Counted from the stretch's first letter, positions 42,219-44,314 are shown. The stretch is 64,000 nt of DNA from an uncultured Acetobacteraceae bacterium (GCA_964250925.1 CAXUHU010000003.1:25327-89326), one strand, 5' to 3'. Notes: generated from the letters alone by a model not told the origin. Made by a program: numbers and translations.

Positions 42219-42839
42219 CTATTCGATGCCCTTCGGCATGTGGTTCCGGTCGAACGCCTTGTCGGCTGCGGCGCGTGACGATTGTGCGTCCGAATCAGCC
42301 GGCTCGGCCTTTACCCACGCGTCCGCGTTGTTGAGCCAGGTCTGGGCGATGGCTGACCGGCGAAACCGGGTGTTGTCCAGCGTGCCAGGTTTCAGGGCTG
42401 CTTCGGCCTGAGACAGCGCAGCCTGCGCCTCCATCGCTTTTGCGCGGGCAAGTTTGGGATCGAACGGGATGCTCGTATGTGCCCCGACCTGGCCGATGTC
42501 GACATCGTCGATGATCAACTCGAACTTACCGGCGAACGCCTCGCGATGCGTGGGCGCGGTGACCCCAAGCCCCAGGGCAGCCCAGTCTAGCGGCAAGGCA
42601 TTGCCGGCCAGCTTGGCCAATACGGCCGGCGGCTGGTTCGGCAGGCCCGCAACCAGCGCAGCCGCCTTTTCGGGGTCGATGATGGCGGGGTTCAGCCCGT
42701 CCGGCAGGCCGTCGATACGCCGGTGCCGGTTGTAGGCATCGACCATGGCCGCGATTTCGGCGGGTGGCGACGAGAGCGGCAGGGATTGTCTTCCCGCCTG
42801 CAAGGTGATCGGCGGCTGTGCTGCCATGGCCACGCTCAT
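42219..42839 (-). CDS. Hypothetical protein (gene 3 of the protease operon)
   Basis: ATG 42839 overlaps the TGA of the upstream gene (ATGA); no recognised family. Confidence 0.6.
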   Translation of the reverse strand: MSVAMAAQPPITLQAGRQSLPLSSPPAEIAAMVDAYNRHRRIDGLPDGLNPAIIDPEKAAALVAGLPNQPPAVLAKLAGNALPLDWAALGLGVTAPTHREAFAGKFELIIDDVDIGQVGAHTSIPFDPKLARAKAMEAQAALSQAEAALKPGTLDNTRFRRSAIAQTWLNNADAWVKAEPADSDAQSSRAAADKAFDRNHMPKGIE

Positions 42840-43285
42840 TGCACAGAAAGCGACGGCCGCTCCAGCGGCTGCAAAGCGGCTACAATGGCGTATTGGCGCT
42901 CCACCGCCTGAAGATGCACGAGAAATGCGTCCAGATCCGCCTGCCGACCGACCGCCGCAGCGCAGCCAATGAGCCAATTGACCAATCCTTCGTTGTTGCC
43001 TTTTTGCAGGGTGCGAGCCACCAGCGCGAGCGCCTCTTCCAAGGAAGCCACCAGCCGATCCCGCGACGACGCCATATGCAGCGGCAGGATTTGCCGGATC
43101 GCCTCGGCCGTCAGGCTAACCTCCTGCGGCGAAGCCTCGGCGTCGAGAAGCTGGGTTGCCGCGGCAGTCGCATATTCACCCGTCAACTCCGGGCGGATCG
43201 TGCCGGCCGCATTGCGATAACCGTCGGCGAGATAGTGTTCGGGGGTCAACGCCAGCAAGTCTGAGCGGCTGTAATCGTGCAACAC
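42836..43285 (-). CDS. Alpha-helical protein resembling Csm2/Cas11 small subunits (stand-alone)
   Basis: YLADGY...G.IRPEL at the N-terminus and DLDAFLVHLQAV..Y at the C-terminus recall Csm2 patterns; needs HMM confirmation. Confidence 0.5.
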   Translation of the reverse strand: MLHDYSRSDLLALTPEHYLADGYRNAAGTIRPELTGEYATAAATQLLDAEASPQEVSLTAEAIRQILPLHMASSRDRLVASLEEALALVARTLQKGNNEGLVNWLIGCAAAVGRQADLDAFLVHLQAVERQYAIVAALQPLERPSLSVQ

Positions 43286-43288
43286 GGC

Positions 43289-44314
43289 TCAGGGTGCTCC
43301 GGCGGGCGGCGGCGCTACAGCCGTCGCCGCCGATGGCTCGAGGAATTCAGTCAACTCGTGCCAGCCAGCAACCGTGAACGACTTTCCCTTGATCTCGGCA
43401 TCCGTGACGGTGACCGTCTTGCCATCCGCGGGATCGTGTATGGCGTAGCGGCGCGGTGGCCCCGCATCGAACCCGGTCATCAGCACGGCATGGCCCGCGA
43501 CCCCGTTCTGTCCCACCAGCAGCGGAACCGGCAGCCCGCCGGACAACGCGGTCTGCATGCGCGTCAGCGAAGCATCCATGGTGCTGTCGTCAACCTCGTT
43601 CGTCTTGTAACTGATTCCGGTTGCCGACGTGGTGGTGTTGAACAGGCTCTCGACACCGCCAAGCGACAATCCTCGTCCAGGCGTACCCAAGTTGGTGGGT
43701 CTCACGCCTTTGCTGCGCAACATATCGCCCTGTTCCTTAGCGAGCTTCGGACTGAGCTTGTTGCCGTCCGTTTTGTCGGCGTCCTCCAGCTTCGGGCTCT
43801 CCGTCCGCAGCTTCAGCGCGTAGATCGGGTCGAGCTCCGCCTTGATCGCCTGCACCGAGGTGGGCGCGCAGGACATCTCCCACTGCTGCTTCACCCCTTT
43901 GCCGCTGCTGTCGTCCACGATGTGGAGGTTGTCCTCCATCCATTTATGATCCTTGCCCTTGATGGCCGAGTAGAACGCTTCGACCTCGGCGGCCGAGTGG
44001 CCGCTGGCTAGCGCCTTGGTCAAGTAGGCGGTCTCGTCGCCCTTGGCCTTCACCATGACCTGGTCGATGCGCTGCTGCTCGGCCGCCGGCATCGCTTGCT
44101 TCAGGGCCTGGGCGCGCGCCGATTGCGCAGGGCCGAGTGCCGCGCGCGGCACCGGCTTGGCCGATGCCGCCCCAATTCCGAGCTTGGCCTTGATCGTGTC
44201 GAACATGCCGCCGATACGGCCATCAGAGCCGCCGGCTGGGCCGGCGTTCGTCTCGTAATCTGCGGGGTTGACGCCGAAGGCGTCCAGCACCCAGGCGTCT
44301 TGAGGAGAGAGCAT
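43289..44314 (-). CDS. Papain-like (C39-like) cysteine protease domain protein
   Basis: KQQWEMSC (Gln/Cys), GHAVLMTG (His), YAIHDP (Asp). Confidence 0.7.
   Translation of the reverse strand: MLSPQDAWVLDAFGVNPADYETNAGPAGGSDGRIGGMFDTIKAKLGIGAASAKPVPRAALGPAQSARAQALKQAMPAAEQQRIDQVMVKAKGDETAYLTKALASGHSAAEVEAFYSAIKGKDHKWMEDNLHIVDDSSGKGVKQQWEMSCAPTSVQAIKAELDPIYALKLRTESPKLEDADKTDGNKLSPKLAKEQGDMLRSKGVRPTNLGTPGRGLSLGGVESLFNTTTSATGISYKTNEVDDSTMDASLTRMQTALSGGLPVPLLVGQNGVAGHAVLMTGFDAGPPRRYAIHDPADGKTVTVTDAEIKGKSFTVAGWHELTEFLEPSAATAVAPPPAGAP

Follow-up and report, generated by a model that had tools for sequence, protein, structure and literature searches.

A putative effector-immunity cassette joining a C39-like cysteine peptidase and a predicted stand-alone relative of Csm2 in an uncultured Acetobacteraceae bacterium

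Introduction

Why would a protein that resembles Csm2, the small subunit (Cas11) of type III-A CRISPR systems, be encoded directly behind a protease gene and not among cas genes? The question is raised by three minus-strand genes at positions 42219-44314 of a 64,000-nucleotide stretch of DNA from an uncultured Acetobacteraceae bacterium (GCA_964250925.1 CAXUHU010000003.1:25327-89326), which is hereafter called the window. The genes, designated g1 (43289-44314, 341 aa, ATG start at 44314), g2 (42836-43285, 149 aa, GTG start), and g3 (42219-42839, 206 aa), were defined as open reading frames (ORFs) with their translations and form a compact cassette between cvpA and cbpA. The end of g1 (CCC TGA) is followed by GCC and then by the GTG of g2, a 3-bp gap that keeps both genes in one frame, and the g2 stop overlaps the g3 start in caATGAgc; an in-frame ATG four codons downstream is a possible alternative start for g3 (P0081).

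A preliminary description of this DNA, made from the sequence, had reported the same strand, gap, overlap, and flanks, and the ORFs, junctions, and flank families agree with it. It had further proposed that gene 1 encodes a papain-like protease and that g2 is a CRISPR small-subunit fold repurposed as its partner (inhibitor, immunity protein, or substrate) in a possibly undescribed conflict or regulatory system. On the sequence evidence given below, a partner role is retained for g2, with an immunity protein fitting best, while the idea of an undescribed system gives way to a predicted polymorphic-toxin effector-immunity module of contractile injection systems. Because the g1 toxin domain is fused to VgrG and eCIS_core proteins, because g1 shares an N-terminal motif with other effectors, and because the cassette co-occurs with TssC, we consider it probable that g1 is an orphan type VI secretion system (T6SS) effector and that g2 (and g3) are its immunity proteins.

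The peptidase domain of g1

The g1 protein begins with an N-terminal leader motif and a Gly/Ala/Pro linker; a helical pre-domain comes next, and then a predicted toxin domain that resembles C39 peptidases and Cpe1, a papain-like cysteine protease effector. The peptidase domain spans about residues 136-328 (43331..43909, minus strand), as delimited by the conserved alignment block and by the part that the g1 hidden Markov model (HMM) matched in the VgrG and eCIS_core fusions. A Gln...Cys...His...Asp catalytic set is present in that order (Q143/Q144, C149, H275, and D294), and all positions of QQWEMSC149, GH275, and H293-D294-P295 were invariant among 31 g1 homologues, in line with the catalytic-type residues that the preliminary description had read in gene 1. 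The predicted catalytic Cys149, in QQWEMSC, is encoded at 43868..43870 (minus strand). The codon of the predicted catalytic His275 lies at 43490..43492 (minus strand), and its GH motif aligns with GHW of the CdiA papain-like toxin chains 8ssm_B and 12aj_A; Asp294 in the HDP motif (43433..43435, minus strand), the predicted third member of the triad, aligns with a DPW segment of the CdiA toxin chains. Gln143 or Gln144 is likely to be the oxyanion-hole residue.

Scans of the three proteins with Pfam, NCBIfam, and PADLOC gave only a sub-threshold match, that of the window's g1 to Peptidase_C39_2 (PF13529; 17.3 bits against a cut-off of 24, E 0.007), and PF13529 was precomputed for 11 of 39 g1 homologues. 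The PADLOC defence-system models held no family for g1, g2, or g3 at E up to 10. In a profile search of the PDB, the top matches of g1 were the CdiA toxin domains 8ssm_B and 12aj_A and the DUF4150 protein 9l5u_A, all weak and local (E 0.013-0.3, over the GH...HDP segment). We take these CdiA and DUF4150 chains to be members of the Cpe1 family. Taken together with the conserved motifs, these similarities identify g1 as a predicted C39-like papain-fold cysteine peptidase, so that the papain-like protease proposed earlier is upheld at the level of sequence. No N-terminal hydrophobic signal sequence could be read in g1, for which its absence had been claimed before, or in g2 or g3; the lack of signal peptides in g2 and g3 fits a toxin that acts in the cytoplasm.

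Distribution and arrangement of the cassette

The preliminary description had named conservation of the neighbourhood as a check on the operon. For each of the three proteins a family of homologues exists, none of which bears an annotation. We fetched 30 loci by protein identity or degenerate patterns, and in nearly all of the 26 distinct loci, which come from several phyla, g1 was followed by g2, with g3 next in most. Such an order of genes far exceeds what chance would give. Most hosts belong to the Acetobacteraceae, the Rhodospirillales, and other Alphaproteobacteria, and further cassettes were found in Spartobacteria, Pedosphaera, Planctomycetota, Polyangiaceae, and Kofleriaceae. The flanking genes are housekeeping genes that differ in every genome, and several genomes hold two copies, as at L020:10001-13347, where a g1-g2-g3 cassette and a g1-g2 cassette on the opposite strand converge. 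The more constant partner is g2: several loci have only g1 and g2 (for example L051, L024, and L029), g1 with g3 alone occurs at a single locus (L026, Bacteroidota), and another Bacteroidota locus (L027) has g1 without either partner.

The partner genes can also multiply. An array at L056:1-3448 consists of a partial g1, g2, g3, a second g2 (g2'), and a gene in which a further g3 and g2 are fused (g3'-g2'', P0112), an arrangement that resembles, by analogy, the immunity-gene arrays of polymorphic toxin systems. In P0112, g3 precedes g2, the reverse of the usual gene order, and the fusion is thus not a read-through of neighbouring genes; its sequence suggests that g2 and g3 act together. The L056 array is followed by a gene for a 598-aa protein with a PG_binding_1 domain. 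An apparent g1-g2 fusion, P0073, was dropped: unrelated residues stand in place of the peptidase's C-terminal strand, the g2 portion begins with a Met of its own, and the protein looks like a frameshifted read-through.

A search of a plasmid collection returned one weak partial match only, a 'peptidoglycan-binding protein' of a Streptomyces viridifaciens plasmid (CP090840.1:1597911-1598267) that shows weak similarity to g1 in the helical pre-domain and around the Cys. P0218 joins a g2-like domain to a peptidoglycan-binding domain. Gram-positive bacteria may have related modules that are delivered by a different route.

Links to contractile injection systems

At the Polyangiaceae locus L024, the g1-type domain occupies residues 682-959 of a 961-aa ORF, residues 36-571 of which match Phage_GPD, Phage_base_V, and Gp5_trimer_C and thereby mark the ORF as an evolved VgrG; a g2 gene comes directly after it. 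In L027, the g1 toxin domain is fused to eCIS_core (PF13699), a domain of extracellular contractile injection systems (eCIS). TssC (PF05943) was present in 19 of 21 carrier genomes, the window's own included, and the two exceptions are Bacteroidota; in the same family as the window, the background is 99 of 201 genomes (49%). At 49% each, the chance that all 19 non-Bacteroidota carriers would have TssC is ~1e-6, a figure that is only indicative because the carrier genomes are not independent. The T6SS genes in the genome of the window include TssC at C32:17799 and C4:6408 and VgrG at C4:4388-5953.

The leader of g1 gives a connection within the same genome. Residues 5-20 of g1, QDAWVLDAFGVNPADY (44255..44302, minus strand), form a 16-residue motif with the pattern D.WV.DTFGVDP..Y, in which the Trp (W8) is nearly invariant in the family. 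Searching all ORFs of the window's genome with an HMM of the motif revealed three more proteins, each with the motif at its N-terminus and a Gly/Ala/Pro-rich linker after it, followed by differing C-terminal domains. One of them (C4:7686-8633) is encoded directly after vgrG (TIGR03361, 2.8e-163) and tssC; the order on contig C4 (4268-9224) is vgrG, tssC, the 316-aa leader-motif effector with an unassigned C-terminal domain, and a 196-aa protein with a signal peptide, which is likely to be a periplasmic immunity protein. Another (C88:6412-7611, minus strand) has a calpain-family Peptidase_C2 domain (1.9e-21), and the last (C15:47647-48078, minus strand) runs off the end of its contig. One to six proteins per genome begin with the motif in 10 of 14 carrier genomes, and their C-terminal domains include HExxH metallopeptidase-like, calpain-like, and unassigned types. 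The partner genes do not travel with the leader: g2 and g3 are single-copy in the window's genome and absent beside the other leader-bearing effectors, and they follow g1-type domains whatever the N-terminus, g2 also standing behind the VgrG fusion. Judging from these sequences, the leader motif and the flexible linker probably load g1 onto the T6SS, and g3 is predicted to be a second immunity or accessory protein specific to the g1 toxin domain.

Two further observations concern leader-bearing proteins and their surroundings. In a leader effector at L061:9684-11606, the linker repeats a 22-residue unit (GGVIDSVESGASNLYDSAAGAV) about 14 times in tandem and is followed by an HExxH domain. ORFs of 600-690 aa that weakly match the TssC/VipB model (E about 1e-40 to 1e-47) occur in several genomes, at about one per genome, for example at G000:C32:28142-28990 and L062:11323-13398, and the latter lies 1.3 kb from a leader-motif effector.

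Several points weigh against reading g1 as a T6SS effector. The link from toxin to spike holds for the g1 family, through the VgrG fusion of L024, while the window's cassette is an orphan: no vgrG, hcp, PAAR, or adaptor gene lies beside it, and the cassette is likewise an orphan in at least five other contexts. Pfam detected no MIX, FIX, PAAR, Rhs, or DUF4150 domain in g1. The role of the leader in loading is deduced from one in-cluster paralogue together with co-occurrence, and within 10 kb of the leader-bearing effectors of other genomes no vgrG was found and a TssC-like neighbour appeared in L062 only. Since the T6SS is common in the family (49%), co-occurrence taken by itself carries modest weight for the alphaproteobacterial members. 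Either g2 or g3 may be the true immunity protein, as the Bacteroidota locus keeps g1-g3 and several loci keep g1-g2. A search of public sequencing runs found no expression data, none of the runs covering the locus well enough to reveal transcription.

The missing secretion genes would suit an intracellular toxin-antitoxin or abortive-infection module, in which an unsecreted protease is held by g2 and/or g3 and freed on phage attack or stress. The tight coupling of the genes and the stand-alone, horizontally mobile cassette, found in varied housekeeping contexts and twice in several genomes, would suit it as well. We nevertheless regard such a module as unlikely: this toxin domain also occurs on a VgrG spike and an eCIS_core protein, the g1 leader is common to other polymorphic effectors, one of them inside a T6SS cluster, PADLOC gave no match to a defence family, and neither g2 nor g3 has a DNA-binding or antitoxin-type domain.

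Relationship of g2 to Csm2

The AlphaFold2 (AF2) model of g2 is all-helical (predicted local distance difference test, pLDDT, 93.5; predicted template modelling score, pTM, 0.87). The motifs quoted for g2 in the preliminary description, which had likened them to Csm2, are present and conserved in 34 homologues. When the g2 profile was run with hmmsearch against 1.84 billion representatives, 156 proteins were found, and among the weakest of them, at library-wide E values of 1.6e-4 and 2.4e-4, were P0226 and P0227, which Pfam verifies as Csm2 (PF03750 at 2e-21 and 1.6e-6, respectively), one of them being matched over nearly the whole domain. These two metagenomic proteins are the Csm2 proteins closest to the g2 family; both carry a treble-clef zinc ribbon at the N-terminus, and in P0226 the Csm2 domain occurs twice in tandem.

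Profile-profile comparison with hhalign pointed in the same direction. Against 19 Csm2 proteins from the phylum, collected with the Pfam model alone, the core g2 family scored 33.1 (P 1e-4, 103 columns, probability 56.7%), compared with 10.5 for the reversed profile and at most 17.5 for 60 column shuffles. An expanded g2 family of 140 sequences aligned with independent Csm2 over 136 columns at a probability of 83.7% (E 8e-6), and the probability rose to 97.1% (E 4.8e-11) when the two bridging Csm2 proteins were added to the template; the controls (reversed, shuffled, g1, and g3) scored at most 18, versus 42-74 for the real comparison. In a Foldseek search of the PDB with the g2 model, the Csm2 chains 6mus_B and 6ifk_C ranked second and third of 350,542, and 6mus_B was the best full-length structural neighbour (TM 0.47/0.49, 141 columns, E 1.9); in the viral structure library, the best TM was 0.33. 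From these profiles, we consider it highly probable that g2 and Csm2 share a common ancestry.

Other searches speak against this relationship. Neither PF03750 nor the TIGR Csm2 model of NCBIfam matched g2 at E up to 10, a PDB sequence-profile search with the g2 family returned chance matches only and no Csm2, a Csm2 HMM built here and run against the ORFs of the genome did not match g2, and Foldseek against the PDB gave nothing below E = 1. The Csm2 link thus rests on profile methods, because the Pfam model is unmatched and Foldseek is not significant. These failures, together with a TM below 0.5, are what one would expect if the likeness were a convergence of small helical bundles, a view that would leave the effector-immunity reading unchanged. 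We judge convergence to be rather improbable, because the g2 profile reached two Pfam-verified Csm2 proteins in so large a library, the hhalign comparisons stood clear of their controls, Csm2 occupied two of the top three PDB ranks while nothing comparable emerged from the viral library, and the motifs of g2 and Csm2 follow the same order. The Csm2/Cas11 likeness put forward in the preliminary description is largely supported, by the profile and profile-profile evidence and with Csm2 as the best full-length structural neighbour, though Pfam gives no match and the Foldseek similarity is not significant.

Could g2 then still act as Cas11 in an RNA-guided (type III-like) system that is degenerate or has gone unrecognised? 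Only its homology to Csm2 favours this. The basic RRF/RKF patch of Csm2 is replaced in g2 by SPQE(L/V)..T.EA, as the preliminary description had noted in reporting the basic patch absent, and the median isoelectric point (pI) is 4.70 for 34 g2 proteins versus 9.41 for the 19 Csm2 proteins. The RAMP family PF03787 is absent from 18 of 19 g2-bearing genomes, the window's genome included, and a six-frame search of the whole genome with PF03750 yielded nothing at E up to 1, whereas control genomes were positive. The window contains no CRISPR-like repeat array, as had also been stated, and the neighbours of g2 are the protease gene and housekeeping genes, not cas genes. The absence of RAMP genes and the acidic pI effectively refute a working Cas11. 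On its sequence, g2 is best described as a distant stand-alone member of the Csm2/Cas11 superfamily that does not function as Cas11.

The g2 family and its relatives comprise ~150 clusters at 50% identity, mostly from Acetobacteraceae and Rhodospirillales and also from Planctomycetota, Verrucomicrobiota, and Myxococcota, and the members checked lie outside CRISPR loci. That they constitute a sister family of Csm2 that neutralises a contractile-injection protease toxin by protein-protein binding is a tentative proposal, to which we give slightly less than even odds. Distant g2-like families (P0214, P0222, and others) were set aside, as they have no Pfam Csm2 match and their contigs are short or uninformative.

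The third gene

The AF2 model of g3 (pLDDT 92.1, pTM 0.86) shows a small alpha/beta N-terminal part and a three-helix bundle, and Foldseek against the PDB gave no solved structural relative (best E 0.26, TM below 0.3 over the whole protein). The extreme C-terminal tail, HMPKGIE (42222..42242, minus strand), was located by alignment and is disordered in the model. Across the family, the tail follows the pattern hydrophobic-P-x-G-G/S-M/L-x at the C-terminus. A pseudo-substrate role of the tail towards a Gly-Gly-specific peptidase is speculative.

This tail invites a different account of the cassette, in which g1 would be a processing peptidase that trims the tail of g3 after the conserved C-terminal Gly, maturing g3, or releasing g2 in fusions, under the regulation of g2. 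C39-type peptidases cut after Gly-Gly (PMC12136450), the P-x-G-G/S-M/L-x end is conserved, and in P0112 the g2 domain comes directly after the tail motif. Even so, many loci keep g1 and g2 without g3, the window's own tail ends in KGIE with a single Gly, the g2/g3 arrays and duplications look like those of immunity genes, and the VgrG and eCIS fusions would be left unexplained. A processing role therefore seems to us very unlikely, and a T6SS effector with immunity proteins remains the reading that we prefer.

Insertion site and neighbouring genes

On one side, the cassette is flanked by cvpA on the other strand (PF02674, 1.3e-37), and on the other side by a CbpA-type DnaJ gene (DnaJ and DnaJ_C domains), which is followed by a cbpM-like MerR_2 gene. 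In two genomes of the same genus (L057 and L058), cvpA and cbpA are direct neighbours with a spacer of ~110 bp, an empty site. Since the two genes adjoin in both genomes, the 2.1-kb cassette is an insertion into the cvpA-cbpA spacer. The interval from the cbpA start to the cvpA start that holds it (42168..44431, no strand assigned) was set by tblastn of the flank proteins on L057 and L058 and by DNA alignment. In the window's family, 3 of 301 genomes carry g1, and it is absent from three genomes of the same genus; the G+C content of the cassette is close to that of its surroundings, with no marked difference. Just upstream of g1, at 44372..44394 (minus strand), a G+C-rich hairpin of eight G-C pairs is followed by CTTGACTTT; it was picked up by a consensus scan only and did not stand above shuffles, and it may mark the boundary or the promoter region of the insert.

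Elsewhere in the window, positions 47477-48220 (plus strand) encode a 247-aa microbial rhodopsin (PF01036, 4.9e-43). Its helix C, RYIDWTFTTPLLLLS, has Ser at the position of Asp96 of bacteriorhodopsin (a D-T-S motif), and DLVSK in helix G would supply the retinal lysine.

Proposed mode of action and implications

In the mechanism that we propose, g1 would be produced together with g2 and g3 and be held inactive by them in the producer, then loaded on the T6SS via its leader and fired into a neighbouring bacterium. There, the delivered peptidase would attack proteins of the cytoplasm, probably cutting after sites of the small-residue or Gly-Gly type in the manner of ComA, LahT, and Cpe1, a preference suggested by the family to which it is assigned. 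The g2 protein, translationally coupled to g1, would bind and neutralise it in the producer as an acidic helical bundle that no longer has the basic surface for RNA binding and would need no Cas partner, and g3 would be a co-immunity or accessory protein, probably working together with g2. Sister cells would be protected by g2 and g3. That g1 is secreted and toxic, where it cuts, and that g2 and g3 neutralise it are all inferred from the relationships described above.

T6SS effector-immunity pairs are of a known kind, and C39-like protease toxins have been characterised only recently (Cpe1, 2025). What is new here is, first, a predicted immunity family that belongs to the Csm2/Cas11 superfamily and would work with neither RNA nor Cas partners. 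If this assignment is right, the Cas11 fold has been exchanged between adaptive immunity and toxin-immunity systems, and the origin of the small subunit, which is unsettled, would gain a concrete outgroup: a non-CRISPR sister family lets the question be put to structural and phylogenetic tests. Nor is a 'Cas' fold by itself evidence of CRISPR function. The second novelty is a short leader common to unrelated toxins (C39-like, calpain-like, and HExxH metallopeptidase-like), which could help in finding T6SS cargo effectors among Acetobacteraceae and their relatives, where the known marker domains do not apply. The third is the partner set of g2 and g3, which, with its arrays and fusion, suggests a way of neutralising a protease unlike that of Cpi1.

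Comparison with known systems

The g2 protein shares with Csm2/Cas11 (type III-A small subunit, PF03750) a length of ~130-150 aa, a predicted all-helical bundle, and a motif order of YL.GGYFD..G.LR.EL, A...A..L, an (S/T)..QLR-type helix, and DF.AF..H.EAV..Y. It differs in being acidic instead of basic, with SPQEL..T.EA in place of RRF/RKF, in having no Cas10, Cas7, or RAMP genes in its genome, and in always being paired with a peptidase toxin gene.

For g1, the closest parallel is Cpe1, which is delivered by the T6SS or by contact-dependent growth inhibition (CDI), resembles the C39 domains of ComA and LahT, cleaves GyrB and ParE at Gly-Gly sites, and is inhibited by Cpi1, the immunity protein encoded beside it (PLoS Biol 2025, PMC12136450). 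The two systems are alike in the C39/ComA/LahT-like papain fold with a Cys-His-Asp triad, predicted for g1 from its sequence, in a toxin that acts, or in the case of g1 would act, in the cytoplasm after contractile or contact-dependent delivery, and in a cytoplasmic immunity protein encoded directly downstream, which is predicted here. They differ in that the similarity of g1 is weak and local (E 0.013-0.3), that g1 has its own helical pre-domain and a new leader in place of a PAAR, Rhs, or CdiA carrier, and that the cassette has a third gene. As g2 has no detectable similarity in the PDB besides Csm2, it is not a relative of Cpi1 or CdiI.

A related toxin domain, Tox-PLC39, is listed among polymorphic toxin domains with hosts in Bacteroidetes, Chloroflexi, and Firmicutes, and its table row names no dedicated immunity family, with Imm-SuFu given for some members (Zhang et al. 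2012, PMC3482391). In both cases a C39-related papain-like domain is found on carriers of contractile systems, namely the T6SS and types related to Photorhabdus virulence cassettes (PVC) and eCIS for Tox-PLC39, and VgrG and eCIS_core here, whereas that survey (PMC3482391) does not describe the families of g2 and g3 or the stand-alone form found in Alphaproteobacteria.

Finally, the g1 family spans two known formats of VgrG-associated effectors. The VgrG of L024 bears the toxin domain as a C-terminal extension and is followed by the predicted immunity gene, as in evolved VgrG effectors, and in the window the toxin domain belongs to a separate cargo protein with its own predicted immunity genes, as in orphan cargo pairs. 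The window's cassette departs from both in being unlinked to vgrG, hcp, and PAAR and in having no recognised adaptor gene (DUF4123, DUF1795, or DUF2169), and the loading of its g1 would depend on the new leader motif.

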